Shown: positions 1 through 44,326 of the stretch, in pieces
Numbering within the stretch: the first letter of the stretch is position 1
How the letters are laid out: each line of letters opens with the position of its first letter
Virus record (IMG/VR): IMGVR_UViG_3300031669_000025
Span: 1-61,192 of that record
DNA from: a virus
Lineage: Duplodnaviria > Caudoviricetes
Direction: 5' to 3' (one strand)
Length of the DNA: 61,192 nt
The notes under the pieces: generated by a model
Told to the model about the DNA's origin: nothing
The model's database searches: none
Seen by the model: the letters and a program-made list of their open reading frames with translations, nothing else
Program-made: the position numbers and the translations under genes

Positions 1-200
1 AATGTTTTATATTTGTTGTTATGTTCTTTTAAAAATGGGGATATGATGCAGTAATGTATCATCGACAAACATAATCTTCTATAACCTCTGGGAATCGGCA
101 CGTTATGGAGTGAAAGAGATGCCAAACTGAAACAGGACGCTAAAAGCCGATATATAGCCGAGTAGGTTGGTCTGGTGCGATAATGCCCCATTTTTATTGA

Positions 201-331
201 ACATAACGGCTGGCAATAAGAAATGTATGGGATTTAGAAGCAGTAACCTATCCCACTACACGAAATTAAATTAAAGGCACAACTGCACAATTTGGCACTG
301 ACACCCATATATTTTTTATTGTGTGTTATAG
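201..331. repeat. attC-like hairpin S1
   Basis: ACATAAC-ggctg-GCAATAAGAAATGTATGGG ... CCCATATATTTTTTATTGT-gt-GTTATAG. Confidence 0.8.
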
Positions 332-349
332 CCAGTTAATTTAAAAACT

Positions 350-553
350 ATGAACAAATTATTACTTACATTGAAAAGAGATTATAACGATTCAATTACT
401 TTAGTCGCAAATAATCACAAAGATTTAGAAGATTACTTACGTTCCAATTATGATTTTCATAAAATAACAGTAAGAGACGATTCTGTTAGTATTGTTGCTC
501 GTGAAGGTTATGAAACAGAGTTTGGAACGCTTGAATGGATACGCCACGTTTAA
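350..553 (+). CDS. Hypothetical cassette protein (67 aa)
   Basis: ORF fills cassette 325-564; its stop lies in the terminal inverted repeat. Confidence 0.8.
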   Translation: MNKLLLTLKRDYNDSITLVANNHKDLEDYLRSNYDFHKITVRDDSVSIVAREGYETEFGTLEWIRHV

Positions 554-557
554 TTGG

Positions 558-799
558 CTATAACGGACGGGAATAAACGACTTTTAAAAATTATACGATG
601 GAATATACAAAAGCAGATTTAAACTGGTTGATGAGCAAAATGGAATGCACATCAGAACGCTATATGGAAGCGGAAAAAATGATAATTGAGATTATAGATA
701 TGCCTTGGTGGAAGCGTCTATTTTGCGGACGCAAACTACTACGCTTCTTAAAAAGCCGAGACAAGTATAATTTTTAATTGCGTTTATTTATTGTTGTGC
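558..799. repeat. attC-like hairpin S2 with an ORF in its loop
   Basis: CTATAAC-ggacg-gGAATAAACGacTTTTAAAAATTATAC ... GTATAATTTTTAAttgCGTTTATTTa-tt-GTTGTGC. Confidence 0.7.
598..777 (+). CDS. Small hypothetical protein (59 aa, not in the ORF track)
   Basis: Translated by hand: MEYTKADLNWLMSKMECTSERYMEAEKMIIEIIDMPWWKRLFCGRKLLRFLKSRDKYNF*. It has an A-rich leader and exactly fills the hairpin loop. Confidence 0.7.
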   Translation: MEYTKADLNWLMSKMECTSERYMEAEKMIIEIIDMPWWKRLFCGRKLLRFLKSRDKYNF

Positions 800-823
800 T
801 TAACGAAGTGGCGTTTTAATGAA

Positions 824-884
824 GCATAACGTATGGTTGTATGATTTCGTTGCTTTTCGCAATGAATTATACAACGTGTTAGTA
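824..884. repeat. attC-like hairpin S3 (61 bp, minimal)
   Basis: GCATAAC-gtatg-GTTGTATGATTTCGTTGC-ttttc-GCAATGAATTATACAAC-gt-GTTAGTA. Confidence 0.85.
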
Positions 885-976
885 GCTGGCGGTTTAATTA
901 CCCACCACCGCCCGAACGAAGCACTAAAAAAAAGAAAAGCGAAGCGTGGGGATTTTTAATTTTAAAACTAGATATT

Positions 977-1411
977 ATGAAAGATTTTGATTCGATTAAA
1001 GGACTAATTAACAAAGATGCCTTACAAAAAAGCATAGATGCTAACACCGATGGATATGGTGGGGCTTGCGTAAATGTTGCAATAAATGTAATGAAGCATT
1101 TAGACGAGTTTAAGGATGAGTTTAACATTGGTTATAACCCAGACATGACAACACCACACGGCATTATTTGCAAATGTGATGACCAGGGAGGGATTACTGG
1201 CTTTATGGCTGGTGCTGCAAGAAATATAATTGCTAATTGCCACGTTTTAGGATGGAAATTTTACTTGGCTGATACATTAAGTCCATACGATATTGAGAGA
1301 GATGAAGATATTGAAAAAGCGATTAAAAATGTTGTAGATGCTAAACTAGTAAGCTACGATGAAGCAAAAGCATACACTGCTGACTTAATTAAAAGATATA
1401 AATCCAAATAA
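977..1411 (+). CDS. Hypothetical cassette protein (144 aa)
   Basis: ORF within cassette 878-1504; contains a GITGFMAG motif; no function assigned. Confidence 0.8.
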   Translation: MKDFDSIKGLINKDALQKSIDANTDGYGGACVNVAINVMKHLDEFKDEFNIGYNPDMTTPHGIICKCDDQGGITGFMAGAARNIIANCHVLGWKFYLADTLSPYDIERDEDIEKAIKNVVDAKLVSYDEAKAYTADLIKRYKSK

Positions 1412-1497
1412 GTTTGAAAAACTTAAAGCGGGTGGGGCTTTTCTTTTTTTGTTCCAATTACGCAGGAACTTTGATACGAGAACTAAACCCCGCTTGC

Positions 1498-1592
1498 TAC
1501 TAACGGTTGGGTGTATGAAACGTAATCTAACCACGAACTTTGATATTAACCACTGAACTATAATAGGTTATGTTTTATACACCTTGTTATGG
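1498..1592. repeat. attC-like hairpin S4
   Basis: TACTAAC-ggttg-GGTGTATGAAACGTAATCTA ... TAGGTTATGTTTTATACACC-tt-GTTATGG. Confidence 0.85.
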
Positions 1593-1634
1593 TTTAGTTA
1601 AAAAATTATTATACAAACTTAAAATAAAAAACAT

Positions 1635-1844
1635 ATGGAAAACAATTTAATGGAAATCGGTAAAAGATTTCATCAACTAAAAAGTGAATTATTACACGGT
1701 GGATACACTGGTGAAATGTTAGAAAATCACATAACAGATGTAATATCTGATGAAATCTTGTCTGAATTAGGTGAGATAGAAAGATATGATGAAGTAAAAA
1801 GAGCGTTAGTTAATATGTTTTTTCTTGGACAACTCTCGAAATAA
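1635..1844 (+). CDS. Hypothetical cassette protein (69 aa)
   Basis: ORF fills cassette 1586-1863. Confidence 0.8.
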   Translation: MENNLMEIGKRFHQLKSELLHGGYTGEMLENHITDVISDEILSELGEIERYDEVKRALVNMFFLGQLSK

Positions 1845-1856
1845 TTTTTTAATTAA

Positions 1857-1950
1857 CCATAACGTATTGCAATATGAAACGGTTGCCTTGTAAGACGTTT
1901 CACAATATAGATGCAGTTTTCTGGCAACTGTTTTATATTGCGTGTTATCG
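1857..1950. repeat. attC-like hairpin S5
   Basis: CCATAAC-gtatt-GCAATATGAAACGGTTGCC ... GGCAACTGTTTTATATTGC-gt-GTTATCG. Confidence 0.85.
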
Positions 1951-1987
1951 GCTGCCTTTATTGTTAAATCATTAAAATATCAAATAA

Positions 1988-2395
1988 ATGAAAAGAGAAA
2001 TATTATTTAAAGGGAAATTATCACATTCAAAAGAATGGATTGAAGGCAATTTAATTATTGCACAAAATGGAAAACCTTACATAATTCCATTTGATGTTAT
2101 TGAACCCGATGGGCATCATTTGATTATTGATTCAGATAATCCATTTTGGGTTGATGAAAATACTATTAGTCAATTTATAAACCAAACCGACAAAAATGGT
2201 AAAAAGATTTTTGAAGGCGATTATGATTCAGATGGTAATTGTATAGTTTGGTGCAAAGAATGTAATGGTTTTGAATTTGCTGCAATAGATTTACCAACGA
2301 AAGATATTTGCATCCCATGTCATAGATGCGATGGAAATTTCTTCTTTGGCGACCAAATAAACGACTTTGAGATTGTAGGGAATGTTGCGGATTAA
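1988..2395 (+). CDS. YopX-family protein (cassette-borne)
   Basis: MKREILFKGK...W..G and TISQF...DKNGKKIFEGD...FEIVGN are YopX signatures; it also has two extra CxxC pairs. Confidence 0.8.
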   Translation: MKREILFKGKLSHSKEWIEGNLIIAQNGKPYIIPFDVIEPDGHHLIIDSDNPFWVDENTISQFINQTDKNGKKIFEGDYDSDGNCIVWCKECNGFEFAAIDLPTKDICIPCHRCDGNFFFGDQINDFEIVGNVAD

Positions 2396-2404
2396 GGTTG
2401 CCGA

Positions 2405-2441
2405 TAACTCGTTTATATATACAGTTCAAAAAATTGAACCA
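2405..2441. other. Array-terminal site T1 (candidate attI-like docking site)
   Basis: TAACTCGTTTATATATACAGTTCAAAAAATTGAACCA; 29/37 ungapped identity to 6715-6751; no partner hairpin arm. Confidence 0.55.
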
Positions 2442-2505
2442 AGAGGAAATCTAACAAAGTAACTTAAAACTAATTTAATGTTTAAATTTACCTATAAATA
2501 ATACA

Positions 2506-2883
2506 ATGAAAAAACTAATTTTAATATTACTCCTATTAATACCTATAACTATATTCTCAAGTCCTCTTCATATTGGTCATGCTAAAGTATATGTTAAATA
2601 TTGTATTACTTCAGATAGACATGATACCTATGATGAAGAAAGTAACTATATAAGAGAATATTGTTCTAATAATGTTCAAGTATTTTATTTCTTTAATAGT
2701 AATAATACTTGCTATGAACAAACTACATTCTATGATAAGTCTATCCTTGCTAAACTTTATACTCAACTATCTAGTTTAACACCTGTTACAACTAATATTT
2801 GGATTGATACTAGTAATGGAGTATACTATGAATTATTAATACAAGATAAAGATACCTATTTCTGTATAAGAAATTGGAAATAA
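2506..2883 (+). CDS. Hypothetical exported protein
   Basis: N-terminal signal peptide MKKLILILLLLIPITIFS. Confidence 0.7.
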   Translation: MKKLILILLLLIPITIFSSPLHIGHAKVYVKYCITSDRHDTYDEESNYIREYCSNNVQVFYFFNSNNTCYEQTTFYDKSILAKLYTQLSSLTPVTTNIWIDTSNGVYYELLIQDKDTYFCIRNWK

Positions 2884-2935
2884 TAAATTACTATGAAAAA
2901 AGCATACTTATAGTGTATTAACACCTTGTTAAAAT

Positions 2936-3163
2936 ATGAGAGCATTTATAATAAAACACAGAGGTAAATCAAGATGGCAAAATATGGTATTTGATAGAGA
3001 AATAACTTTTTCTGATAAAGATAAAATATATGCAGGATTATTATTTTTTAGAAAGAAAGATGCTCAAAAATATCTTGAAACATATCAATATAAAGAATAC
3101 TATGAAGTCATTGGTGTGACTATTGATGATTCTAGTAAAGATAATAGGTTTACAAAAACTTAA
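2936..3163 (+). CDS. Hypothetical protein
   Basis: ORF in co-oriented gene run. Confidence 0.65.
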   Translation: MRAFIIKHRGKSRWQNMVFDREITFSDKDKIYAGLLFFRKKDAQKYLETYQYKEYYEVIGVTIDDSSKDNRFTKT

Positions 3164-3190
3164 ATTTATAATTCATAAACTTTAAATACA

Positions 3191-3412
3191 ATGACAAATG
3201 AACAAATTTATAAAAAGGTAGTGGGACATAAGCCAAATAAAAAGTTTGGTATAAAAGGCTCATTTAGTTGGGATGATATAAATAAATTAATGAATGAAAC
3301 AATAGAAAATTACATCATATCTAATGGTATAAAACTTTATTCCCAAGAAGAAATTGATATGGTTTATGATAAAGGTTTTGAAGATGGATGTATTTATTTA
3401 GCAAATAAGTAA
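3191..3412 (+). CDS. Hypothetical protein
   Basis: ORF in co-oriented gene run. Confidence 0.65.
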   Translation: MTNEQIYKKVVGHKPNKKFGIKGSFSWDDINKLMNETIENYIISNGIKLYSQEEIDMVYDKGFEDGCIYLANK

Positions 3413-3427
3413 TAAATTTTAAATGTA

Positions 3428-3634
3428 ATGAAACATCAATTTAATATTAGAAGAAGAAGCTATGTTTCAGTAATAACTCCAGAAATAGAGTATATTGTAG
3501 AACATAAGAATATAGGTTATAAATCTAACTTTATATCAGCAAAGTTAAGTATGAAACCTACAACAGTAAGTTATATCCTTAAAAGATATACACTTAAAGA
3601 TAAGAATAACAAGTATATAATGCATAATAAATAA
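3428..3634 (+). CDS. Small basic protein, possible HTH
   Basis: ISAKLSMKPTTVSYIL resembles an HTH recognition segment; its stop overlaps the polymerase start. Confidence 0.5.
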   Translation: MKHQFNIRRRSYVSVITPEIEYIVEHKNIGYKSNFISAKLSMKPTTVSYILKRYTLKDKNNKYIMHNK

Positions 3635-5508
3635 TGATTCATTTCATAAGCACACAAAAAATCATAGAAACAGATGAAATAAGAGAATCTACTGTAGAGG
3701 AAGCATTAAATTATCTTAATAATTTAGATATAATTGGATTAGATTTAGAAACTACGGGATTTGATCCATATAAAGATAAAATATTATTAATGCAATTAGG
3801 TGATAGAGAGAATCAATATGTTATAGATACAATTACAGTAGATATTCTTATTTTTAAAGAATTACTAGAAAGTGATAGGTTATTTATAGGTCAAAATATA
3901 AAATTTGATTTAAGATTTTTATTAGTTCAAAAAATTATAGTAAAAGATGTTTATGATACCTATATTGTTGAAGAAATTTTATATAATGGTATTGTAGGAA
4001 TAAGAAAAAGTTTAGATTATATAGCAGAAAGATATTGCAAAGTATTTCTTGATAAATCTATTAGAGGAAATATTCATAGAGAAGGAAATTCTTATAGAGT
4101 TATAAGATATGCAGCTGATGATGTAAAGTATCTACATGAAATTAGAGAGAAACAGTTACTAGATGTATATAAAAAGGATTTAAATAGATCAATAGAACTT
4201 AATAACTTATTTGTTCCAGTTCTTGCCTATGTTGAAATATCTGGATTTACTTTAGATAGTAGCAAGTGGAAAGAAAAAATGAGACAAGATAAAATAGAAT
4301 TAGAATCTAGACTAAATATTTTAAATAATTATATACTTGATAATAAAATAGACCAATTTATAGAGAAACAACTAGATTTATTTAATTCTAATACTACAGT
4401 TACAATAAATTGGAAATCTCCAAAACAAGTTGTAGAATTTCTAAAAATTATAGGTATTGATTCTAGGGAATTAGATAAAGATTCTGGAGAATTAAAATGG
4501 AAAGCAAATGCTACAGTATTACAGAAGAAAATAAGTGAAAATCCTATTATATCTACATTTATAGAGTATGGAGAATATTATAAAAAATGTTCTACTTATG
4601 GGGAGAACTTTTTAAAACAAATCCATCCTATAACTGGAAAATTACATACTAAGTTTCAACAATGGATGAAAACTGGTAGAATGTCTTCAGGTGGGAAGGA
4701 TAAAAGTGCTAATATTGAATATATAAACTTTCAAAATATCCCAGCAGATAGTGAAACTAGAAGTTGTTTTGTTGCTTCTGAAGGTAATATATTAATAGAT
4801 GCAGATTATTCTGGCCAAGAACAAATAGTTTTAGCTAATAAGTCCTTAGACCCAAATATTCTAGAGTTTTATGATAAGAAATTGGGAGATATGCATTCCT
4901 ATATTGCTAAATTATGTTTTAAAGAAGAGTTAGAAGGTATTGAACTCAGTGATGTAAAGAAGTTAAGACCAGATTTAAGACAACTTGCTAAAGCAGCAGG
5001 TTTTGCGATAAATTATGGTGGCAATGGATTTACTATAGCAAACAATTTAAATGTATCTCAAGATTTAGGAGATAAAGTATATGAAGCATATTTTAAAGCA
5101 TTTCCAGGATTAAAGAATTATTTTGATGGTGGATATAAAAATGCTAAAATGAGACATTATATTCTTTATAATGAAGTTACCAGAGATAAATTCTTTATTC
5201 CTTATTCTATGAAGGATGGGGAAATAAAAAGAGCATCAATGAATTTTCCTATACAAGGAACATCAGCTTCAATTACTAAATATGCAGCAATTTTATACTA
5301 TAGAAAATTACTAGAAAGAAATTTACTTTTTAAAATATTTATACCTAATATAATTCATGATGAAATTATACTAGATTGTCCTAAAGAAATAGCAAATGAA
5401 GAAAGTATAGTATTAAAACAATGTATGGAAGATGCAGGAGTAAGATTTAACCAAACTAGAGTTCCATTGTATGCAGAACCATGTATTACAGAATTTTGGA
5501 AACATTAA
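3634..5508 (+). CDS. polA: Family A DNA polymerase with 3'-5' exonuclease domain
   Basis: ExoI DLETTG, ExoII NIKFD, ExoIII YAADD; TGRMSS; motif A DADYSGQE; motif B RQLAKAAGFAINYG; NFPIQG; motif C IHDE. Confidence 0.97.
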   Translation: MIHFISTQKIIETDEIRESTVEEALNYLNNLDIIGLDLETTGFDPYKDKILLMQLGDRENQYVIDTITVDILIFKELLESDRLFIGQNIKFDLRFLLVQKIIVKDVYDTYIVEEILYNGIVGIRKSLDYIAERYCKVFLDKSIRGNIHREGNSYRVIRYAADDVKYLHEIREKQLLDVYKKDLNRSIELNNLFVPVLAYVEISGFTLDSSKWKEKMRQDKIELESRLNILNNYILDNKIDQFIEKQLDLFNSNTTVTINWKSPKQVVEFLKIIGIDSRELDKDSGELKWKANATVLQKKISENPIISTFIEYGEYYKKCSTYGENFLKQIHPITGKLHTKFQQWMKTGRMSSGGKDKSANIEYINFQNIPADSETRSCFVASEGNILIDADYSGQEQIVLANKSLDPNILEFYDKKLGDMHSYIAKLCFKEELEGIELSDVKKLRPDLRQLAKAAGFAINYGGNGFTIANNLNVSQDLGDKVYEAYFKAFPGLKNYFDGGYKNAKMRHYILYNEVTRDKFFIPYSMKDGEIKRASMNFPIQGTSASITKYAAILYYRKLLERNLLFKIFIPNIIHDEIILDCPKEIANEESIVLKQCMEDAGVRFNQTRVPLYAEPCITEFWKH

Positions 5509-5523
5509 TTAAATAAACTAATT

Positions 5524-5820
5524 ATGGGACAAGCAGTAAGTAAAAAGATCGTAGAATATCTAACCTACGAGGAGTTCAAGCAGCAACTGAAACTTCTCGA
5601 AACTACATCAACAACCAATTTTTTCAGGGATGTTCCAGTATACATTTCCAGTGATGGTAAAGGATGTATTATTGCTCTAATAGGTAACTTTATTTATTTT
5701 AATAAAGAGGATATTCTTATTGTAGATGAAATAGGTGATAATCCCCTTAAAGCCATCACCAAGGAGCAGTTCAATGAGGACTATACTCCCATTGAGGAGA
5801 TAAAGGTTAACCCAGTTTAA
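5524..5820 (+). CDS. Hypothetical protein
   Basis: 98-aa ORF. Confidence 0.65.
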   Translation: MGQAVSKKIVEYLTYEEFKQQLKLLETTSTTNFFRDVPVYISSDGKGCIIALIGNFIYFNKEDILIVDEIGDNPLKAITKEQFNEDYTPIEEIKVNPV

Positions 5821-5925
5821 AAACTAAAGATATGGAAGTAAAAGAATTTATTGGAGAAAAGGTAGTCTATGATGATCTAGATTAGTTTACGTATAATTAG
5901 TATATAATGTTCATTAAAAATTGTA

Positions 5926-6055
5926 CCCTAACGTTAAGTATATGGCAAGGTGGGGATTAAAACGTGCTGCCCTATCGAGCCAAAAGAAAGTAAATTAACA
6001 GCACAAATATTGCAAACTGGAATACGCCCCCAATTTGCTATATACATTGTTAGGG
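5926..6055. repeat. attC-like hairpin S6
   Basis: CCCTAAC-gttaa-GTATATGGCAAggTGGGG ... CCCCAatTTGCTATATAC-att-GTTAGGG. Confidence 0.75.
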
Positions 6056-6074
6056 TGCGTTTATTCTTATTAAA

Positions 6075-6401
6075 ATGGAAGCAAAAGAAGAAAAATTTAA
6101 AATAGAGGTAAGATTCTCAAAAAATAGACACTACCCTGAATATGGAAGTGAAGCATATAGTATTGAAAGCCATTCTATTTATATTCCGTATGGTAAAAGA
6201 TTTGATTTTAAAAATAGTAGCAGGGCAATAGAATTTATAAAAGGCAGAATTGATTCAAAAGTTTTAGAACATTTCGATTCTGTTTGCATAACAAAATGGC
6301 GTGGTTACGGAGGAACTTACGAATATTTGAAGGAATGTAAAGAAAAAAGCGACACCAAACCAATTGATAAAGAATTTGCTGAAAGTATACTGTTTTTTTA
6401 A
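6075..6401 (+). CDS. Hypothetical cassette protein (108 aa)
   Basis: ORF fills cassette 6049-6413. Confidence 0.8.
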   Translation: MEAKEEKFKIEVRFSKNRHYPEYGSEAYSIESHSIYIPYGKRFDFKNSSRAIEFIKGRIDSKVLEHFDSVCITKWRGYGGTYEYLKECKEKSDTKPIDKEFAESILFF

Positions 6402-6406
6402 ATGCA

Positions 6407-6536
6407 CCCTAACGGTTGCAAATATAAAATCGGTGGGATTTTACTCACCGACTTTGATAAATTGAATTAATGTAACTTAAACAGACTGGGCTAACAAGAC
6501 CACTAACACCCCACTGTTTTATATTTGTTGTTATGT
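6407..6536. repeat. attC-like hairpin S7
   Basis: CCCTAAC-ggttg-CAAATATAAAAtCGGTGGG ... CCCACTGTTTTATATTTG-tt-GTTATGT; the right arm matches the partial site at 3-24. Confidence 0.85.
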
Positions 6537-6549
6537 GGCGTTAATTATT

Positions 6550-6717
6550 ATGGACTGCCAACGACCAGTAAAAAACAAAGAAACAAACCAATGGGAAGTA
6601 TGGGATTTTGCTTACGAAGAAAATGGCGAAAGATACTATGAACTTCATAAGTTTTTTACATACAAAGAGGCTATTGATTTTTGGAAAGTTAGAAATCAGA
6701 AACTTAATGCCACATAA
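6550..6717 (+). CDS. Hypothetical cassette protein (55 aa)
   Basis: ATG at 6550 preferred over GTG 6535, which lies in the repeat; the stop TAA is the TAAC core. Confidence 0.75.
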   Translation: MDCQRPVKNKETNQWEVWDFAYEENGERYYELHKFFTYKEAIDFWKVRNQKLNAT

Positions 6718-6751
6718 CTAGTTTATAACCTTAGCTAAAAAAATTGAACCA
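6715..6751. other. Array-terminal site T2 (candidate attI-like docking site)
   Basis: TAACTAGTTTATAACCTTAGCTAAAAAAATTGAACCA; paralog of 2405-2441. Confidence 0.55.
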
Positions 6752-6809
6752 CATGAAAAGTGTCGAATCTATTGAATAAGATTTTAACTCATACATAAAA
6801 ACTAAAGAT

Positions 6810-7154
6810 ATGAAAAAGTTACTATTATTACTATCATTATTGCTACTATTTACTACAATTAATGCTACAGAAAAAAACATTCAATCAGTTGTAATAGTAA
6901 ATAATAATGTTAAATTAGGTAATGGATTTTATTCAATACCTAAACATTATAAATATACAATGAAACAAAAAGTAATACATTGTATAATTGCAGAAGCTAT
7001 AATATTTGCAATAGGTGAATATGCTATTAAAACTAGAAATGCACAATTATGGAATGCTGATGGTATTCTCTTTGTAGCATCTATTCCTGCTAATATTATA
7101 TATTTGAATAATTACAAAAGACCTATTGGTTGTAGTGGAATGAATAATCCTTAA
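6810..7154 (+). CDS. Hypothetical membrane/exported protein
   Basis: Signal peptide plus two hydrophobic segments. Confidence 0.7.
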   Translation: MKKLLLLLSLLLLFTTINATEKNIQSVVIVNNNVKLGNGFYSIPKHYKYTMKQKVIHCIIAEAIIFAIGEYAIKTRNAQLWNADGILFVASIPANIIYLNNYKRPIGCSGMNNP

Positions 7155-7157
7155 ATT

Positions 7158-7448
7158 ATGAATTTTAACTCATTTAAAAAGCATTTCAATAAATTATCTA
7201 TATGCTTAGATATTGCAGATATTGAGTTAAAAACTATATGGAATGATTTACCTCTAACTGATGATAAGAAAGCAAAAGAAGTCATTAAGAGAGGTAAATC
7301 TTTCAATATAGCACTCAATAGTTGGATTAATAGTATGGATAATAAGAATATTAGTGAAGATGCTAAACTATCATTAGGTAAGATGTATGATGATGTTAAT
7401 GACATTATTGATGAATATTTTGATGAACTTTATAAAGAAAGAAAATGA
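7158..7448 (+). CDS. Hypothetical protein
   Basis: ORF with overlapping start/stop junction to the next gene. Confidence 0.7.
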   Translation: MNFNSFKKHFNKLSICLDIADIELKTIWNDLPLTDDKKAKEVIKRGKSFNIALNSWINSMDNKNISEDAKLSLGKMYDDVNDIIDEYFDELYKERK

Positions 7449-17656: not shown

Positions 17657-19275
17657 TGAGTAGTATAGCAATAGCAGGTAAAAGTGGGACTGGTAAAAGC
17701 ACTTCCTATGGACAATTTTTAGATTTAGGAATTAAGGGACTTATTCCTAAAGAAACAGTAATTATTAATGTTGCTGGAAAAGATTTACCATTTAGAGGTT
17801 GGAAAAAACTATATTCTGGTAAAATTACTGAAGGGGGTAATTATTTTGAATCTTCTGATAGTAGTCAAATAGCACAGGCAATTACTTTTATATCAAATAG
17901 TAGAACTGATGTAAAAAATATTGTAATTGATGATGCACAATATACAATGGCTTTTGAATTTATGCGTAGGGCTAAAGAATCTGGTTATGGTAAATTTGCT
18001 GATATCGGTGTGAATACTGGTAAAATTGTTGAAGCAGCAAGAAATACTAGGAAAGATTTAAAAGTATATTTTTTGTGGCACCCTGAACAAGATAGAGATA
18101 CAGGATTTAAGTTAAAGACTGTTGGTAAGATGGTAGCGTAAAATCCGCCATTATCTGCTTAATTGCTGGAATTTCCTAAAGACAATAAAACTACAAAATA
18201 ATCTGAAAAGATAAGTTTGAAAGTTTGAAAATTTATTGTATATTTAATGGACAATCAGCAGCCAAGCCTCTAAGGTCAATTAATTGATTATGAGGAAGGT
18301 TCACAGACTATCTCCTGTTGTGGGAGAGTACATTAAAAAGTAATTAACTTTAATGGAAAGAGCAGACATAAGAATAAAAGTTTATTGTTTAAAGCATCCT
18401 GACACATTAGAAATAAGATATGTTGGAATAACTTCTAAGAGTCTAAACAAAAGGTTGAGTAAACATTTGGATAATGCTAGGTATACAAAACATAATAAGC
18501 ATTTGTATAATTGGATAAATAGCATATTAAAAAATGATAAAAAACCTATTATAGAAATAATAGAAGAAGTGGATTATGATATTTGGCAAGAGAAAGAAAA
18601 ATATTATATATCTCATTATCCCAATTTATTAAATTCTACAGAAGGTGGCGAAGGTGTATTTGGGTTCAGACATTCAGAAGCATCTAAAAAGAAGATGGGC
18701 AGAAAAGGTGTGTATCCAACAAAAGAAACACTACTGAAAAGAAGTAAGGCTTTAAAGGGGCGCATTGTATCGGAGGAACACAGAAGAAAGATAGGAGAAG
18801 CCAATTCAGGTAAGATATATACTAAATATAAAATTTTAGTAAAAGATTTATTGAATGATACTTCTATTATTTACAGTAGTGTTAAAGAGATTCATTCATC
18901 TTTAAGCATTGGAGAGATGACAGTCAGGAGGAATTTAAGCAATAACAAAATTGTTAAATCAAGATTTATTTTTATGAAAATATAGTCGAGACTTAATAGA
19001 AATATTAAGAATAATGCTGGAAGAATAATTAACTTCCTATAAAAAGCATTATTGAAATTTGAGATGATTACCTCACATTAGAAGGATTATTTACCGTAAT
19101 TCTTTATACTAGAGTAACTAAAGGTGCTGATAATAAGATTAAGTATGAATTTGTAACCAATAATGATGGAGAATTTCCAGCAAAAAGTCCTATTGGTATG
19201 TTTAAGGATATCTATATTCAAAATGATTTAGGTCTTGTATCTGAAATCATTGATAAGTATAATGAAGATGAATAA
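17656..19275 (+). CDS. AAA_24/Sak4-like P-loop ATPase, spliced: exon 1 17656-18134 + exon 2 19062-19275 (230 aa)
   Basis: Walker A GKSGTGKST, Walker B IVIDD. Joining exons (479+214=693 nt) gives KTVGKMV-DDYLTLEGLFTVILY...AKSPIGMF...NDL, a continuous family-like sequence. Confidence 0.9.
18135..19061 (+). ncRNA. Group I self-splicing intron (927 nt)
   Basis: Exon ends in U and intron ends in G; P1 AUGGU/GCCAU with G-U at the splice site; P AATTGCTGGAA, Q AATCAGCAGCC, R GTTCACAGACTA, S AAATATAGTCG. Confidence 0.92.
18353..18985 (+). CDS. Intron-encoded GIY-YIG homing endonuclease with NUMOD3 repeats
   Basis: KVY...YVG...R...H, LLNSTEGGEG, HSEASKKKM and SEEHRRKIGEA; sits between the R and S elements. 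Confidence 0.9.
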   Translation: MERADIRIKVYCLKHPDTLEIRYVGITSKSLNKRLSKHLDNARYTKHNKHLYNWINSILKNDKKPIIEIIEEVDYDIWQEKEKYYISHYPNLLNSTEGGEGVFGFRHSEASKKKMGRKGVYPTKETLLKRSKALKGRIVSEEHRRKIGEANSGKIYTKYKILVKDLLNDTSIIYSSVKEIHSSLSIGEMTVRRNLSNNKIVKSRFIFMKI

Positions 19276-36625: not shown

Positions 36626-39600
36626 TTAACCTCTACATTTTCTCATTTCATCTAAAATCTCATCTCTAGATATAGAATTATACTTATTAAGTATATTTTC
36701 CTCTCTAGGAATAAGTTTAATATAATAGTATTGTCTACCATTACTTCTAACCTCTTCTCCAGAAGTTGTTCCTACCTTGGCAGTATATTCTGTTTGATTA
36801 TTGTTGATATTTTGTGCTTTCTTTATCATCTTATTATAAATAGTAATACCACCATTTCTATCTACAGGAACTAACTTAACTCTACCTTGAGAATTTAATT
36901 CTCCAAATTTACGCAATACTTCATCTGGATTAGTTCTATCTTTACTTGGTAAGAAACTTTCAACTGTTTGATAATCATCATAGAAGTCATCCTTACCATA
37001 TTCAGGATTAATATCATAAAATTCATCCATAGAATCTTTAGGTTGTTCTTCATAATTCATAGTATTCTTATCACTAATTAAAGTTCTACTATTATTACCA
37101 TTAATAAGTATCAAACTATTCTTTAAAGCACCTTCAAGTAAACTATTTTTATTAACATTAAATCCCAGCGAAGATAGTAATTTATTTAATAAGTCAGATA
37201 ACTTATCTAGTAAACCTTTGTTTTTATTATCAGGATCATTTATATCATTTAAAACTTCCTGTATATGCTTATTAGTAGTAGTAAGAGTTACAAACTCATT
37301 TAACTTGTCTACTTGAGAAGCATATATTTCCATAAGTTCATCATTGGTATCAAGTAAATCATACTTTTTACCTTTAATTGCATCTAACTTTGTTGCATAT
37401 TTATCACCATACTTATCTTTAATTCTAGCATTATAAATAGATTGTAATCTCTTCAACTCTTTAATTGCATCTCTAGTTTCAGGAGACACATTTTTAGGAT
37501 TCTTTTCATACTCTTTAATGCTACTATTAATGAAGTGATGTATAGTTTCATGTAACATAGTTTCTGCTACACCTTCTACAGTTTTATTTTTATCACTATT
37601 TAAGTTAAGATATATCTTATTATCTTTATAAGAACCAGCAGTTCCTTCCATATTAGAAGTGGAATCTAAAGATACATTCTCTTTATCTAATAACTTAATA
37701 AATTCTCTTGCTAATACTTGTTGAAATACATCAGAAGAATTTATAGTAATATTATCTAAAATATCCTGAATATCTTTAGTATCACCTTGAGGAACTATTC
37801 TAAGTAACTCTTCTACATTCTCTTTACTACTTTCAGGATTATCATATTCTTCAGAATAACCTTTTTCTGTAGGATATTTTTCATCCTTTTGTTCTACACC
37901 ATCAGCAGCATAAATAGGATTATACTGATTAATCATAGATGTAGCATTGTCAATACCAAAGTTATACTCATTAGTTGATCCCATACCTAAGTTAGCAACT
38001 CTAGTATAAATAGGTTGACCTTCTTCTGTCTTAATACCTTGATATATAAACAGTATATTCTTAGATAATCCTTTAAATCTACCAGCACTTGGTATTACTA
38101 AAAAGATAGGTGGTTCTTTAAATCTACCTGAACCAGTATAGTAATCTGTATTAGTTAAAGCAAAACTAGTAAGTTTATTATTAGTAACATAGTTATTATC
38201 CTTTTCTAAAGGTATAATAGAATTATTTAAATTTTCTCCAGATAATTGTGGTAATCCTCTCTGGTCATGTTGAAAATATTGCTGCACAAATGTAGGTATA
38301 ACCCAATTAGGCATTTCATCATTAGGTATATCTAGTTTCTCATTGTCTTCAAAAAATTTTTCTCTCACCAAGTTTGACATATTGGTAGTAAAACCTATAC
38401 CCTGTAAATAAGAAACAGGCATAAATTTAAGATATTGAGAAAATTCTTGAACTCCACCATTTATATAAGCAGACTTAACTAAATCTTCAAATAGTTCTCT
38501 AGTATTCATCCCAATAGTAGGAATATCTACAACATTAGTATATAGACTTGCAGCAGCTTGCATTATATACAGTTCTGCTGAAGGTTCTACATTAGTGTTC
38601 ATAGATAAAGTAGAAGGTTTGGCACCTTTACTTAAATAAGGAACTAATCTAGATATAAATGGATCATTAATAAATTTAGGTAAATTCTGAATCATCTTAA
38701 TCTTAGTTGCTAAAGACTTATTATCTTTAGTATCTAACATTAATCTTTTTCTCTCAGCATCTATATTTTGATTTAGTAAACCTAAGTTTTGTAAAGTAAA
38801 TAGATAAGACTTAAAATTCTTCCAAATAGTATTCTTAATATCAGATTTTTCTGAAACACCAATTTCATCTTTATTAAAAATATTTTCAACAATATTAAAT
38901 ATCTTAGTTACTCCATCTTGAGTGTAAGGAAAGAAATTACCCCAAAGTTTATTGTTAAATCTTAATCCATACTCAGTAGCGGCACCATTAATAGTTCCTT
39001 CCAATACTTTATTAACATTGGCAATACCACTAGTATTTAATCTATCTATAATTTCTTCTTTAGAAATAGTTTCAAATAGACTCTTATCTAACCCCTTACT
39101 ATCTGTATTAATTACAGATTGAACTAGTTGTAACTTATCAGCATATTTTTTAAGATACATAAGTTGACTTAGTGCTGCCTGTTGAATATAGTTAAAATCA
39201 GCACCAGGATTAAGAATAGATTGTTTCATTGCTTCTATACTCAATCCATGACCTTTATCAAATAACTTTTCAAACTTTTCTTTACTAAAATTTTCATCTC
39301 CATATTTACTTATAGCAAAGAATAATGCTTGAGTATCAGCATTAGGAGTAAAGTCACCCAAAGAAGATTTAAGTCTTTTAAGTTCATTAAAGTAATCTAC
39401 TATAATAGGTTGTTTTACAAAATATGCTACTTCTTCTCCAAATCCAAGTTGAGCAAGTAGCTTAACATATTTGGAAGTATCAGAGTTAAGAAATAACTTA
39501 TCAAGTATTTGTTCCTTTTCATTATCTACAGCAGCAGAAGCTAATCCAGAAATAACCTGAGACTTAAAAGTTATGTCTTTTAAATCTAAGTATTGTTGAA

Positions 39601-42600
39601 TTTTAGGTAAGTAAGTATTAATATCTTTTCTTACTTCTTTAGCATCTAACTTTTCAGTAGCAGCAACTTTAAAAATAAGTTTATTTAAAGTTTTTAAAGT
39701 AAAGATACCACTTAAATCTCCATTAGATACATTAGAACCAAATCTAAAATGTATATTATTACCATCTTTATTTACAAAATGTAAGTCTTTACCTTGTGCT
39801 ACAGCATTAAACATCATTAAGTTAGCAAAATCTCCAACTAATGCTTTACCCATAGCAGCATTAAGTCTCTTATCTCTTTGATAAGAATCTGATAGTGGTG
39901 TAAAATTTTTATTAATTTCTTTTGCTGCATCTATTTCATCGGCAATCTCTTTAAATTTCCAGAATCCTAAAGGTTCAACAATTTGAGATTGAACTAACAT
40001 ATTAGTATTTTGATGTAAAGCAATATGTATATCAAGTAACCTATTCTGTAGTTCTTGTTGCCATACCTTATCTACATCATCAATAAATTTTGCTTCCTTA
40101 TTTATTTCAGGAACTTCATTTTCATTTAATGTAAATGCAAGTTTAGTTAAAGTTTCTTCTTTAAGTTGTTCTATTTCTTCCTTACTATTAAATCTAAGTT
40201 TAGATAATTTACTATCCTTATACATATAGTTATACATGTAGGAGTAAAGTTTATCCACGTCAAAGTCAGAACCCATCTGTGCTAAGAAATCTCTAGGTGC
40301 AACTATAATATCACCACATTCTTTTGGTAAAAATCCAGCAATTTCCATCCAAGATTGTGAATTAGCACCTTGGTTTGGAATTCTCATTCCAAATAAGTTA
40401 AGTAATTCTTCTGGTAACTTACTAGTGTCTATTAGATTAATCTCTGGATCAACAAAATCATTAATATTAAGTTTCTCATTACCCCATTGAAATTTCCAAG
40501 GAATAAAAACTTGTGCTGGAGTTTTAACAATAGCAGTTCCTTCTTTAAATGCTTTTGCTAATTCTTTACCAGTTAATTTTTTACCAGTAGCATCTTCAAA
40601 ATGTCCTGGGTCTAAAGAACCTTTCCATTTAGGAGTATATTTAATACCGCTTTTTTCATTAGGAGTTAAATCATCCTCAGATTTACTATTACTTTGATAA
40701 CCTTCCTCAGTAGATAAGACAAAGGATTTACCTCTAAACTTCATCTTTAATACCTTATTCTTAACAATAGAATTAAGAAGTGCTTCATATTTAGCAGCAG
40801 ATGGCATAAAGGATATATAATCCAGTGCATCATCTAAATTTAAAGATTCTATGTCATTAATAGGATAACCTCTTTGTGTGGCTTCTTCTAGTAAAGTTTT
40901 CTTTAAAGCATCTCTATCTAAAGATTTTATATTACCTCTAGCATCAAACTGAACATTTAACTTTTTAATTAAATTACTATAGTTAGATTTATAAAGATCA
41001 GTATAATGTTGTTCATACTCTTTTTGTAACTCAGCACCAGTATATTCCTTACCTCTATACTTAAATCCTGTTATACTTAGTAGATTAGTAAATAGGTTTT
41101 TATCAGCCTGAGATACTCTATTAATAGCATCTTTTAATTCTTCATAAGGAACTTCCTGCTGTATTCTAAATCCCATTCTAGGTAATTCTTTAGAGGCACC
41201 TTCTATCTCTTCTAAAGGTATATCAGTTCTAATATTGTTATTTTCATCCCATAAATTAACAGCATTTACAGGCATACCTAACTTAGTTCCAGAAGCAAAA
41301 GAAAGTCTATGTAATCCATTCTTTTCCATTGCTATTCTAATGTTATCCATATCTAATCCACTAGTTAAACTAGGAATTAAGGGGTAAGCAGAAGTTTTAA
41401 TATACATTGGAGTAAGACCTGTATTACCTACTTCAAACCAACTATATACAGGTTTTGTTACTTGTAATACTAAATGATTATAGGTATCTTTAAATTCATC
41501 TGACAGTTTATCTTTAATAGCCTGTTCGTAGTAATGATTACCTTTATTAATCTCATCTTGAACAATGCTAGCAATTTCATTATAAAATCCAAGTGGTAAT
41601 AATCCACTTGTATCCATATTATGTAGATGTTCAAGATAGGTAGTAAATTCTTGCGCATTAGTTCCTTCACTTAAAATACCTTCTTTGCTATAATCCTTAG
41701 ATTCATTACCTATTAATACTTTATATTGATCTAAACTTTTAGAATCAACTGCCCTATCATTAGCAAAAATATATTTAACTTTTCCTTCATAATCTGCACT
41801 AGATTTACCTGGAGCAATATGCATAGCAAGTCTCTTACCTACATTGTCAAAGATATCTTTAACTACTCTTAATCTAGTAGTTTCTGACATTGTAGCCCAT
41901 ACTTTCTGTCTATCATTAATATCTTCCTTAGCAAGAAGATTATTTCTAACTAACTTCTTAGATTCTTCTTTATATACTTTAGATTTATAGAAATTAGCAG
42001 CATCACCTACAATACCTGTAAAGATATTTGCATTATTAATAATATACTGAAACACCATATCAGTAGCAACTACTTTACTATAATCCTCAACTCTAGAACC
42101 CTCAAATATTTTATGTTCATTAAATACTCTTAAATCAAGCATAGTAGGTTCTAATACACCTTTACTATTCTCTGTAACAATACCATACTTAGTCCATAGT
42201 TCTAACTTTTCTGCAACTAGACTATTAACTACATTCATAATCTCATCATTAATTTTACTTCTAAACTCAACACTTTCTACATTCTTATTAAGACTACCAT
42301 CTTTTTCCCAAATATCATTCATATTATTCATAGATGGTATAAGTAAAAACATATGCCCACCTTGTTCAAACTCTTTATTAGGAAATGAACTTCTAGACTT
42401 TTTAATATTTTCCCACTGCTTAATTCTTCTAATTTCAGGTAAAACAGCCTGTTCATAAAGTAAATCTATACTTTCCTGTGCTAGTTCACCATTCTCTAAC
42501 TTAATCTTAGCTAAAACAGTCCTAACTGTCATTGCAGTAGATTTATCTGAGTTAGTAACAGAGTTAAGTGTTCCTATTCTTTGTCCTGTGTTAGATTCAT

Positions 42601-44326
42601 CTGTCTGAGGCGCATTTAAGTTAATAAGTTCCTGCATCTCATATTCATCCTCATTAAGATTATGCAACTCTTTACCATCTCTATCTTTAGTATCCATTTT
42701 CTTTATGGAAAGTAAAGATACACTACCTATTCTAAAGTTATCAGTAAATGCAGTATTTTTAGCAGCAAAGTTTTTAAGTATAATACTTTCATTAGCATAT
42801 ACTCCACCTGATGTTAATATTCTTTGAGCAAGTCCTGAAAACTTTAGTTCTCTAACAAAGTCTATAATATACTTATTAAGTCCATAGGATTGAACAGTTT
42901 TATTACCTACTCTATGTGAAGTAGAAAGTATTTGCTTATTATACTTAGCATCTTCTTTAGATAAGTTTTTAAATGCTGTATCTTTAAATACATCATATTC
43001 TTCTATATTCTTACTTCCAACTAACTTAATGTTTTTGTATAGTAAGAGAAATGGACTATTATTATTATTTAGAAATGATTTAAAATCTGTTTTAGTATCT
43101 TTCTTATTTAATTTATATTGGCCTTTAACTATCTTATCCCAGAATTTATCTGAAATAGTTATACCTAAATCTTCTAAAAGTTGTCTTGCTTCATCTGGAT
43201 TACCATCTTTAAGAATCTTTTCAAACCTATCTACAACTTCTTTCTTATTATGTAATACTCCCTCAGAATCTAAATATTTACTATTATTTAAGTTGGCTTT
43301 CCAACTATCAAAAATATTTTTACTTATAGCATTCTGGTTAGCAATAACTTGAACAAATTGCATTGCTTTACCTTTTACCTTAGACCACATACCCATAGTA
43401 TGTTCTACATAGTGACAAGTTAAACTGGTGACAAATTTATTCCTAGTATTAACTCCCATAGCATCTAACTTATCAACTAACTGAGTTACCCAAGGGTATG
43501 CTTCAACATACTCAAGTAACCTATCTTTCATAAGTTCATAATCCTGTGGAATACCCGCAAGAATACTTCTAGTTATGCTTTCAACATAGGTTCCATCTAA
43601 ACTATCAACTTCACCTAAGGCATTCTTTGTTCCTGAGTCTATATCTGAAAATATTCTTTTTAACTCAGCATCTAACTCAATTTTAGCTTCATAAGAAGAC
43701 TTATTAAAATCTAATTTTTCATTAACACTTGCTTCTTCTTGTTCTAAATTAATATCATCATTAACACTACTTGCCAGATTATTAATTCTCTTTAACTTAA
43801 TATTTACTAGATTAGATAAAGTAGTAAAATTATCAATAACAGGATTAAGTAATCCATTTAAAATCTTTTCTTTAGTAGGAATATCAGAGTTTTCTATCTC
43901 TGACTTCATTCTTTTAAATCTATCTAATTCTGCCTTTAATACATTATTTCTAACTGTATTAATATCAGCATTAGGATTTTTAAGAAGTTCTCTATTAATT
44001 TTTCTAGTTAGAGAATTAGTAATTTGTTCTTGTCTAATAGCATCTAAGTCTTTAACTAAATATTTAGATAGAGACTCTTCTATCTTTTCACTAATAGATT
44101 TACCTGTATAGTTAGCATCAGCAGTAATTAACTTCTTATCACCAGCATATTTATCCCATAGATAGTAAGTAGCATCCATAGCAGTCTTATTAATACCTTT
44201 TCTCTTATCTCTAAGTTGAGGGTCTTTAAATTCCTGTTCTGTAAGTTTCTGTCCACCAAAATGTTCAACTATACTGTTGAAATCATCAACTACATCTTTA
44301 TTTACTACATTAGGACAATATGACAT
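36626..44326 (-). CDS. Virion-packaged RNA polymerase (2566 aa) with C-terminal zincin-like motif
   Basis: RIPNQ...QMGSDFDVDKL catalytic DxDxD variant of crAss-like vRNAPs; KPVY, KTS, AVDNEK; HETIH near the C-terminus. Confidence 0.92.
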   Translation of the reverse strand: MSYCPNVVNKDVVDDFNSIVEHFGGQKLTEQEFKDPQLRDKRKGINKTAMDATYYLWDKYAGDKKLITADANYTGKSISEKIEESLSKYLVKDLDAIRQEQITNSLTRKINRELLKNPNADINTVRNNVLKAELDRFKRMKSEIENSDIPTKEKILNGLLNPVIDNFTTLSNLVNIKLKRINNLASSVNDDINLEQEEASVNEKLDFNKSSYEAKIELDAELKRIFSDIDSGTKNALGEVDSLDGTYVESITRSILAGIPQDYELMKDRLLEYVEAYPWVTQLVDKLDAMGVNTRNKFVTSLTCHYVEHTMGMWSKVKGKAMQFVQVIANQNAISKNIFDSWKANLNNSKYLDSEGVLHNKKEVVDRFEKILKDGNPDEARQLLEDLGITISDKFWDKIVKGQYKLNKKDTKTDFKSFLNNNNSPFLLLYKNIKLVGSKNIEEYDVFKDTAFKNLSKEDAKYNKQILSTSHRVGNKTVQSYGLNKYIIDFVRELKFSGLAQRILTSGGVYANESIILKNFAAKNTAFTDNFRIGSVSLLSIKKMDTKDRDGKELHNLNEDEYEMQELINLNAPQTDESNTGQRIGTLNSVTNSDKSTAMTVRTVLAKIKLENGELAQESIDLLYEQAVLPEIRRIKQWENIKKSRSSFPNKEFEQGGHMFLLIPSMNNMNDIWEKDGSLNKNVESVEFRSKINDEIMNVVNSLVAEKLELWTKYGIVTENSKGVLEPTMLDLRVFNEHKIFEGSRVEDYSKVVATDMVFQYIINNANIFTGIVGDAANFYKSKVYKEESKKLVRNNLLAKEDINDRQKVWATMSETTRLRVVKDIFDNVGKRLAMHIAPGKSSADYEGKVKYIFANDRAVDSKSLDQYKVLIGNESKDYSKEGILSEGTNAQEFTTYLEHLHNMDTSGLLPLGFYNEIASIVQDEINKGNHYYEQAIKDKLSDEFKDTYNHLVLQVTKPVYSWFEVGNTGLTPMYIKTSAYPLIPSLTSGLDMDNIRIAMEKNGLHRLSFASGTKLGMPVNAVNLWDENNNIRTDIPLEEIEGASKELPRMGFRIQQEVPYEELKDAINRVSQADKNLFTNLLSITGFKYRGKEYTGAELQKEYEQHYTDLYKSNYSNLIKKLNVQFDARGNIKSLDRDALKKTLLEEATQRGYPINDIESLNLDDALDYISFMPSAAKYEALLNSIVKNKVLKMKFRGKSFVLSTEEGYQSNSKSEDDLTPNEKSGIKYTPKWKGSLDPGHFEDATGKKLTGKELAKAFKEGTAIVKTPAQVFIPWKFQWGNEKLNINDFVDPEINLIDTSKLPEELLNLFGMRIPNQGANSQSWMEIAGFLPKECGDIIVAPRDFLAQMGSDFDVDKLYSYMYNYMYKDSKLSKLRFNSKEEIEQLKEETLTKLAFTLNENEVPEINKEAKFIDDVDKVWQQELQNRLLDIHIALHQNTNMLVQSQIVEPLGFWKFKEIADEIDAAKEINKNFTPLSDSYQRDKRLNAAMGKALVGDFANLMMFNAVAQGKDLHFVNKDGNNIHFRFGSNVSNGDLSGIFTLKTLNKLIFKVAATEKLDAKEVRKDINTYLPKIQQYLDLKDITFKSQVISGLASAAVDNEKEQILDKLFLNSDTSKYVKLLAQLGFGEEVAYFVKQPIIVDYFNELKRLKSSLGDFTPNADTQALFFAISKYGDENFSKEKFEKLFDKGHGLSIEAMKQSILNPGADFNYIQQAALSQLMYLKKYADKLQLVQSVINTDSKGLDKSLFETISKEEIIDRLNTSGIANVNKVLEGTINGAATEYGLRFNNKLWGNFFPYTQDGVTKIFNIVENIFNKDEIGVSEKSDIKNTIWKNFKSYLFTLQNLGLLNQNIDAERKRLMLDTKDNKSLATKIKMIQNLPKFINDPFISRLVPYLSKGAKPSTLSMNTNVEPSAELYIMQAAASLYTNVVDIPTIGMNTRELFEDLVKSAYINGGVQEFSQYLKFMPVSYLQGIGFTTNMSNLVREKFFEDNEKLDIPNDEMPNWVIPTFVQQYFQHDQRGLPQLSGENLNNSIIPLEKDNNYVTNNKLTSFALTNTDYYTGSGRFKEPPIFLVIPSAGRFKGLSKNILFIYQGIKTEEGQPIYTRVANLGMGSTNEYNFGIDNATSMINQYNPIYAADGVEQKDEKYPTEKGYSEEYDNPESSKENVEELLRIVPQGDTKDIQDILDNITINSSDVFQQVLAREFIKLLDKENVSLDSTSNMEGTAGSYKDNKIYLNLNSDKNKTVEGVAETMLHETIHHFINSSIKEYEKNPKNVSPETRDAIKELKRLQSIYNARIKDKYGDKYATKLDAIKGKKYDLLDTNDELMEIYASQVDKLNEFVTLTTTNKHIQEVLNDINDPDNKNKGLLDKLSDLLNKLLSSLGFNVNKNSLLEGALKNSLILINGNNSRTLISDKNTMNYEEQPKDSMDEFYDINPEYGKDDFYDDYQTVESFLPSKDRTNPDEVLRKFGELNSQGRVKLVPVDRNGGITIYNKMIKKAQNINNNQTEYTAKVGTTSGEEVRSNGRQYYYIKLIPREENILNKYNSISRDEILDEMRKCRG

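Follow-up and report, generated by a model that had tools for sequence, protein, structure and literature searches.

The locus considered here raises the question of why the small genes of a phage should be enclosed, one by one, between long complementary ends. The window, by which we mean the whole 61,192-base stretch of record IMGVR_UViG_3300031669_000025, is one contig representing a fragment of a crAss-like phage genome, estimated to be 62% complete, and it is here described as carrying two orphan arrays of integron-like cassettes, array A at 1-2408 and array B at 5933-6718. A typical unit consists of an imperfect hairpin, an arm that begins with GTTA, a small gene, and a second arm that ends with TAAC and is the inverted repeat of the first. 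It is probable that these inverted repeats form the outer part of an integron-like cassette recombination site, being paired as a circle-specific stem and linked to an Xer-like enzyme. The anatomy of the unit, the covariation of the arms, the breakpoints after TAAC, and the link to a ~270-amino-acid (aa) Xer-like recombinase of related phages are shown by the sequences.

A preliminary description of this DNA listed seven GTTA...TAAC end pairs, at 18/207, 325/564, 878/1504, 1586/1863, 1944/2408, 6049/6413, and 6530/6718, and all seven are found at these positions. Each pair has at least nine perfectly complementary bases counted from GTTA and to TAAC, and the pairs tile the arrays with no overlap. 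With G·T taken as neutral, the arms are 15 bp long in five of them (325/564, 878/1504, 1944/2408, 6049/6413, and 6530/6718), two of which have a T-T mismatch at position 10; in 18/207 and 1586/1863, nine base pairs are followed by a loop or bulge and then by 10-15 more. The cognate scores range from 9 to 14, to be compared with a mean of 4.95 for non-cognate combinations of the seven pairs, and only one of the 5040 permutations of left and right arms, namely the true pairing, attains the observed score sum. Shuffled pairings thus do not match the cognate ones. In the remaining 54 kb of the window, 3258 GTTA/TAAC pairs at comparable distances give 17 with a score of at least 9, two with at least 11, and none with 13 or more.

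The proposal that every cassette is closed by its own unique repeat holds only in part. Seven of the eight units are so closed, the exception being the degenerate unit at 565-830, which has no 5′ arm. The repeats are unique within the window; elsewhere, among the matches listed, the arm pair of 325-564 flanks 25 distinct cassettes of differing length and content, with G·T at position 11 in each. As a side observation, the truncated hairpin and the gene of the degenerate unit come after an arm ...TTGGCTATAAC, and an incomplete hairpin likewise follows the same type of arm in phage OP947161 (L001, 4316-4395).

Cassettes of the same build occur in other phages. A distant DNA search gives matches to hairpins in two GenBank phages, both with such arrays, and the same architecture is seen in GenBank phages OP947161, LR756500, and NC_028924 and in many IMG/VR contigs. 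Polaribacter phage P12002L carries the same long arms, and the first 30 kb of MK672805 are devoid of an array, so that this record was left out. An exact scan of viral contigs with the 14-base arm of cassette 325-564 returns at least 117 loci, in 23 of which the partner arm lies 160-390 nt downstream; the other 94 lack a partner arm and were set aside as chance matches.

The arm profile was derived from 210 unique cassettes of recombinase-anchored viral loci, picked by arm score and by the presence of the G·T. Pairing is of the Watson-Crick type in 92-100% of these cassettes at arm positions 1-10, in 97-99% at positions 12-14, in 74% at position 15, and in ~40% beyond, the last being near the level of non-cognate arm pairs, which give 26-50% at the positions compared. 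Position 11 is G·T in 93%. As many as 102 different hexamers are found at positions 5-10, and the median stem is 15 bp. When phage cassettes are required to have only nine perfect pairs, G·T is found at position 11 in 54% (n=327) as compared with 8% of control flanks (n=95), and pairing at positions 12-14 amounts to 66-74% versus 22-26%. A separate class of cassettes with arms of only 10 bp (GTTATAAGTA/TACTTATAAC) and hairpins of ~40 nt recurs within and between phages.

The window cassettes are separated by segments of 47, 80, 81, 116, 116, and 117 nt, each an imperfect hairpin with ...TAAC and GTTA... as its closing ends. Folding favours the + (coding) over the - strand in all six, since the fixed positions that form G·T in one strand give A·C in its complement, and the predicted folds have 1x1 mismatches or G·T wobbles at set positions and not bulged bases. 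Imperfect hairpins with AAC/GTT cores and one favoured strand, as in attC, are thus found at the six window sites and at 166 elsewhere; by anatomy, the window contains six complete attC-like sites and no integrase.

Circularisation in silico stabilises the site by 5-11 kcal/mol in 6/6 window cassettes. Elsewhere, among the 166 of the 210 cassettes with an identifiable hairpin, the circularised site is more stable in 165, with a median of -7.9 kcal/mol, a result that follows in part from how the cassettes were selected, and the cut (coding) strand is the more stable one in 164. The expectation that the stem of an excised circle would reach well past the core is borne out by these folds. Equilibrium folding of long single strands of the window, which ignores kinetics and proteins, pairs the cognate arms across the gene in the minimum free energy structure of 6/6 cassettes, with mean pair probabilities of 0.45-0.93, and gives a negligible array register except for a value of 0.48 at 6049. 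The second register suggested for the linear strand is plausible according to this model. The 0.48 is due to ACCCTAAC on the phage side of the left junction of array B (5925-5932), which equals the last 8 bases of the 3′ arm of cassette 6 (6406-6413); this repeat could be a matter of chance or the trace of an earlier copy.

A tyrosine recombinase gene of 268-277 aa is present in 4 of 25 cassette-bearing records, one of the four being broken, and starts 36-110 nt past the last TAAC, in the same orientation as the cassette genes. On a 334-kb phage contig (L130, 8208-8986) such a gene is split into a 220-aa frame and a separate C-terminal piece. The top family match is the XerA model, with 168-193 bits, under its cut-off of 220. 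Against the integron-integrase model TIGR02249 the proteins reach 151-170 bits (cut-off 265) in two stretches that skip approximately model positions 180-250, and among solved structures XerA proteins come closest, with Vibrio IntI4 next and once more matched in two stretches. The IntI-specific extra segment is therefore absent from the enzyme that adjoins the arrays in related loci. In none of the 25 records was a protein of IntI type found to exceed the family cut-off.

Searching viral contigs with these recombinases gives 175 relatives, 80 of which were kept (L156-L235). At least one same-strand cassette is found upstream of the gene in 62 of the 66 viral loci with at least 600 nt of upstream sequence, and in 39 the last TAAC lies within 200 nt of it. 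The cassettes near the viral recombinase number 225 upstream in the same polarity versus 7 upstream in the opposite one and 9 + 10 downstream. A docking site, TAAC followed by TATTATATATA, is conserved 36-73 nt before the recombinase start in related loci.

The borders of the mobile unit can be located from shared segments. In one locus (L129), two copies of a cassette share an identical stretch that begins at the TAAC preceding the upstream hairpin and stops at their own TAAC. In 32 alignments of array regions (at least 150 nt, 90% identity), 18 ends fall at a TAAC junction and none at a GTTA junction; the remaining ends are 19 at region edges and 27 classed as 'other', several of which, by eye, are also at a TAAC. 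The same cassette adjoins the docking site in one phage and is internal to the array in another. The duplicates and the ends of the shared segments indicate a unit built as [hairpin - GTTA - gene - TAAC], with the cut on the coding strand just past TAAC. Movement as units with core borders is seen in the related loci and is putative for the window's own cassettes. The earlier suggestion of a distinct recombination mechanism gains from these results, as both a different recombinase, Xer-like and without the IntI insertion, and different site rules are found.

In the window itself, arrays A and B both start with a hairpin and finish with TAAC, after which similar phage sequence follows, and the junctions at 2409 and 6719 look like the docking consensus of the related loci, with no recombinase gene there. 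The shared post-array sequence (2409-2445 and 6719-6755) reads T[C/A]GTTTATA ... AAAAATTGAACCA, and a palindrome GTTCAAAAAATTGAAC lies at 2425-2440; it is possibly a repeated phage intergenic signal that doubles as a docking site. No tyrosine recombinase is present among the 74 of 75 listed open reading frames (ORFs) covered by the protein family scans, nor in six-frame searches of the window with PF00589 and the recombinase alignment A1. The recombinase of these arrays would have to be encoded by the missing 38% of the genome, by another phage, or by the host.

The arms are not specific to the cargo of one cassette, as the description of each repeat as its cassette's own had implied. Within the recombinase-anchored set, 79 of the 210 cassettes have one of 29 recurrent arm pairs, and 66 of the 88 same-arm cassette pairs have no cargo in common. 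The sequence shared by the latter extends 14-33 nt inward per end and mostly 1-4 nt outward. Contigs from four metagenomes of four studies likewise keep both arms of window cassettes around a different interior. In the likely source sample, the bins with hairpins are 5-15 times deeper than the phage backbone. In run X1, the bins of window positions 1-7200 that hold hairpins and arms have a depth of 77-145 compared with ~10 for the phage backbone, which means that these site families are common to many other elements of that community. The linkage between arm type and hairpin type is weak: the cassette's own hairpin is alike in 11.9% of same-arm pairs versus 1.5% of other pairs, and the next hairpin in 4.4% versus 1.2%. 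Among 301 distinct cassettes there are only nine homologous pairs, and the arms are more conserved than the interior in four of the five with an interior identity below 95%, numbers that are too few to build on. Identical arm pairs with little else in common around unrelated genes mean that the arms may be a small reusable set; the reuse may reflect convergence on favoured arms or the attachment of ready-made arms to new genes.

The mechanism that we propose is as follows. The unit [imperfect hairpin - GTTA arm - gene - arm TAAC] would be excised as a single-stranded circle. In this circle the 3′ arm would join the 5′ side of its own hairpin, and the two arms would pair as a 14-15 bp stem continuing into the hairpin, in the order GTTA/TAAC core, six free base pairs, G·T at position 11, T-A at position 12, and 2-3 further base pairs. 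The long arm would provide a full-length binding arm for a recombinase without the IntI-specific segment, and the wobble, being G·T on the cut strand and A·C on the other, would mark the strand. Cognate pairing may stabilise the excised circle for insertion at the TAAC-TATTATATATA docking site; where the DNA is a long single strand, it may bring the two cut points of one cassette together. We hold only tentatively, as a possibility rather than as the expected outcome, that the end stem and its G·T are the recognition and strand-choice device of an undescribed Xer-type integron-like system, with arms that are maybe a reusable set from a cassette-building step. In that case, the stem and the wobble would replace the bulged bases and the IntI-specific segment of classical integrons.

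The arrays share with classical integrons the one-gene units, the imperfect hairpins with ...AAC/GTT... cores, the cross-over at the core, the docking site by a tyrosine recombinase gene, the better folding of one strand, and the complementarity of the cassette ends. They differ in that the recombinase of the phage system is Xer-like and lacks the IntI insertion, in that the stems are predicted to carry wobbles or mismatches and not bulged bases, and in that the phage genes lie on the cut strand and point to the recombinase, whereas integron cassette genes read away from attI under a common promoter. When reversed, the phage unit has the classical layout of recombinase gene, docking site, and hairpin-ended cassettes, with the genes antisense. 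The arms here have 14-15 bp and a fixed G·T at position 11, whereas PMC7439510 gives the attC R box as a 7-nt consensus. The view that classical ends pair over only 7 bp is too strict, however. Seven tiling cassettes of a Vibrio anguillarum chromosomal integron fragment, which has a true IntI, show 9-11 perfect cognate pairs each, and in a class 1 array psp has 12, aadA2 12, cmlA1 8, and aadA1 4 (9 with one mismatch), that is, 8-12 bp in three of the four. The contrast with the window is accordingly one of degree, plus the fixed wobble, and the paired ends are a family-wide, stronger form of a trait that is also present in classical cassettes.

The cognate arms of 8-12 bp in classical cassettes would also fit the alternative that the window carries ordinary attC sites, i.e., a cluster of attC sites lacking integron integrases (CALIN), served by a host IntI, the extra pairing being a relic or a compensation for weak A+T-rich stems. 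The DNA here has a G+C content of 27-35%. In addition, the main text of PMC9892861 (Qi et al. 2023) reports CALINs in lytic phages including P12002L, which has arms of the same long type and a site that IntI1 recombined in E. coli, and these CALINs share with the present arrays the attC-like build, the location in lytic phage genomes, and the lack of an integrase in the record. That main text makes no mention of crAss-like phages, Bacteroidota, Flavobacteria, or Xer, and its supplementary tables may list further records. The alternative is at odds with the lack of IntI-type proteins scoring above cut-off in the 25 records and with the adjacent enzyme having no IntI insertion. Furthermore, neither a relic nor a general need for stability would yield a defined stem length and a fixed wobble, which are found in hundreds of unrelated cassettes. 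We thus consider it unlikely.

Two other systems are of relevance here. XerCD integrates the folded single-stranded DNA of CTX phage, so that an Xer enzyme without the IntI segment acts on a site where mismatches set the exchanged strand; this differs from the present case in that a whole phage genome enters dif, with no cassette array and dedicated recombinase. In T4-type phages, the promoter-stem-loop (PeSL) cassettes are small accessory genes, each placed after a conserved stem-loop module and shuffled as units; we know of no dedicated recombinase, AAC/GTT cores, or cassette-specific complementary ends for them. In the full-text literature searched, which does not extend to subscription journals or to the supplements of PMC9892861, neither an Xer-like phage cassette system nor an extended cassette-end stem is described.

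Relatives of the recombinase in bacterial genome contigs number at least 565, of which 80 (L237-L316), mostly from Bacteroidota and 40-66% identical, were kept. Their arrays lie downstream of the recombinase gene and in the opposite polarity, with 72 cassettes in this arrangement versus 4 in the other polarity. Their arm profile is the one found in the phages: position 11 is G·T in 85%, and positions 12-15 are paired in 92, 89, 79, and 64%, respectively; in the less-selected count, G·T at position 11 amounts to 61% as compared with 5% for the control. The 14-15 bp arms are therefore routine in chromosomal arrays as well as in hundreds of phage cassettes, and pairing of this length does not set the window apart from Bacteroidota arrays. 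The two groups differ in gene direction. In Bacteroidota, transcription of the recombinase gene runs into the array, and in 63/72 cassettes the gene has the classical direction, on the strand complementary to the one that is cut. In the phages, the array comes before the recombinase gene; relative to the polarity of the sites the cassette genes are antisense, being on the cut (wobble) strand and reading towards the docking site in 185/210. Despite the reversed cassette genes of the bacterial arrays, the polarity of the wobble with respect to the recombinase gene is maintained there.

This last result is important for the alternative of an RNA role, in which pairing of the leader with the stop-codon region would insulate or stabilise each small transcript. 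In the phage set, the wobble strand is the coding strand in the 185 cassettes just mentioned, and G·U is tolerated in RNA. The arms also directly precede the start codon at one end and overlap the stop codon at the other, and some hairpin 3′ halves have TAnnTTTG-like motifs, which resemble a Bacteroidota promoter motif. In the 63 bacterial cassettes with the gene on the opposite strand, however, the transcript would carry A·C mismatches; the wobble tracks the polarity of recombination and not that of transcription. An RNA role would moreover leave the TAAC breakpoints and the tight link to the recombinase unexplained, and positions 1-7200 give no Rfam match at E ≤ 1. It appears quite improbable. 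The conserved terminal tetranucleotide of the inverted repeats that bound the units might also suggest miniature transposable elements, mobilised by a transposase that acts on these repeats as their termini. This reading is scarcely credible and was rejected, since there is no transposase in the window or adjoining the arrays and no target duplication at the array ends, the arm sequence is free while pairing is kept, and the units invariably follow one another head to tail with hairpins of set size between them.

Several points weigh against our reading of the repeats as the circle-specific stem of a recombination site. Arm complementarity and G·T served as selection criteria for the cassette sets, so that the cassette counts around the recombinase, the arm profile, and the stability figures are partly there by construction, and the recount with nine perfect pairs lessens this bias and does not remove it. 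Part of the end pairing may simply be a general requirement of cassettes of this kind, as classical ones have arms of 8-12 bp. That the long arm serves for binding and the wobble for marking the strand is an inference, and, with the recombinase absent from the window, activity of the window's own cassettes is at most putative. Two shared segments end on the GTTA side. The metagenome contigs give no circle, excision joint, or empty site, although contigs of this kind could not show circles or excision joints, and the joints listed, with sides of 20-34 nt, are most probably those of other elements with arms and hairpins in common. The comparison for an empty site involved one polymerase relative (49% identity) with no array near the gene and says little.

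If the repeats act as the stem of a recombination site, the implications extend to integrons in general. Integron recombination is thought to need the IntI-specific segment, which reads bulged bases in a short-stemmed hairpin. The phage arrays, including those of one crAss-like phage, and the Bacteroidota arrays appear to achieve the same with a plain Xer-like enzyme and sites of another design, whose clearest mark is the cassette-end stem. It provides a search rule, GTTA-N6-GT ... AT-N6-TAAC with pairing over positions 1-15, for cassettes that current integron finders probably overlook or call only partly. The stem and the wobble are also direct targets for mutations that address strand choice without IntI, and identical arms around unrelated genes bear on the long-open question of cassette origin.

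Table 1. Coordinates of the array features in the window and of related cassettes in other records
Feature	Positions	Strand	Details
3′ end of hairpin site clipped by contig start	1-17	+	3′ hairpin sequence identical at 6513-6529
Cassette 1	18-207	+	arms 18-26/199-207; distal stem 31-40/186-195
117-nt imperfect hairpin site of cassette 2	208-324	+	fold; 74-89% alike to hairpins of other phage loci
Cassette 2	325-564	+	arms 325-339/550-564, G·T at position 11; ORF 350-553
Degenerate cassette	565-830	+	truncated hairpin 565-597; ORF 598-777; 3′ end ...CATAAC at 830; no 5′ arm
47-nt hairpin site of cassette 3	831-877	+	fold
Cassette 3	878-1504	+	arms 878-892/1490-1504: 9 bp, T-T mismatch, G·T at position 11, 4 bp; ORF 977-1411
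81-nt hairpin site of cassette 4	1505-1585	+	85% alike to LR756500 hairpin
Cassette 4	1586-1863	+	arms 1586-1610/1840-1863: 9 bp, one-base bulge, ~15 bp; ORF 1635-1844
80-nt hairpin site of cassette 5	1864-1943	+	87-88% alike to hairpins of L007, L064, L115
Cassette 5, end of array A	1944-2408	+	arms 1944-1958/2394-2408; ORF 1988-2395
Docking-site-like junction past array A	2409-2445	+	TAAC followed by TCGTTTATATATAC..., then small palindrome
Low-GC phage backbone separating arrays A and B	2446-5925	+	includes DNA polymerase A 3634-5508
Left junction of array B	5926-5932	+	CCCTAAC on phage side
116-nt hairpin site of cassette 6	5933-6048	+	fold
Cassette 6	6049-6413	+	arms 6049-6063/6399-6413, G·T at position 11; ORF 6075-6401
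116-nt hairpin site of cassette 7	6414-6529	+	fold
Cassette 7, end of array B	6530-6718	+	arms 6530-6544/6704-6718, G·T at position 11; ORF 6535 or 6550 to 6717
Junction past array B	6719-6755	+	TAAC followed by TAGTTTATAAC..., resembles 2409-2445
10-bp-arm cassettes	L131 2919-3240, 13315-13540, 15559-15813; L002 2686-2905
Arms kept, interior different (metagenome contigs)	6049-6413; 6530-6718; also 878-1504, 1944-2408		6049-6413: 5 contigs, 3 runs; 6530-6718: 3 contigs, 3 runs

Array A runs upstream beyond the start of the record. Its cassette 1 has no ORF on the + strand (the longest is 6 aa), and a 58-aa frame on the complement crosses the 5′ arm and leaves the contig, so that this cassette may be non-coding or carried in the opposite sense. 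The ORF of cassette 5 matches phrog_8684/phrog_98, of unknown function, and the stop codon of the cassette 7 ORF sits within the TAAC core. The G+C content is 33-35% at 1-2000, as compared with 22-29% across most of the phage. Besides a replication module with DNA polymerase A, the crAss-like gene set of the window comprises the Crassvirus muzzle, ring 1, ring 2, and cargo proteins. A 2566-aa ORF at 36626-44326 is outside the Pfam and PHROG scans, and the giant ORFs beside it have no family match. Within the replication module, a GIY-YIG/NUMOD3 homing endonuclease gene is found at 18353-18985.

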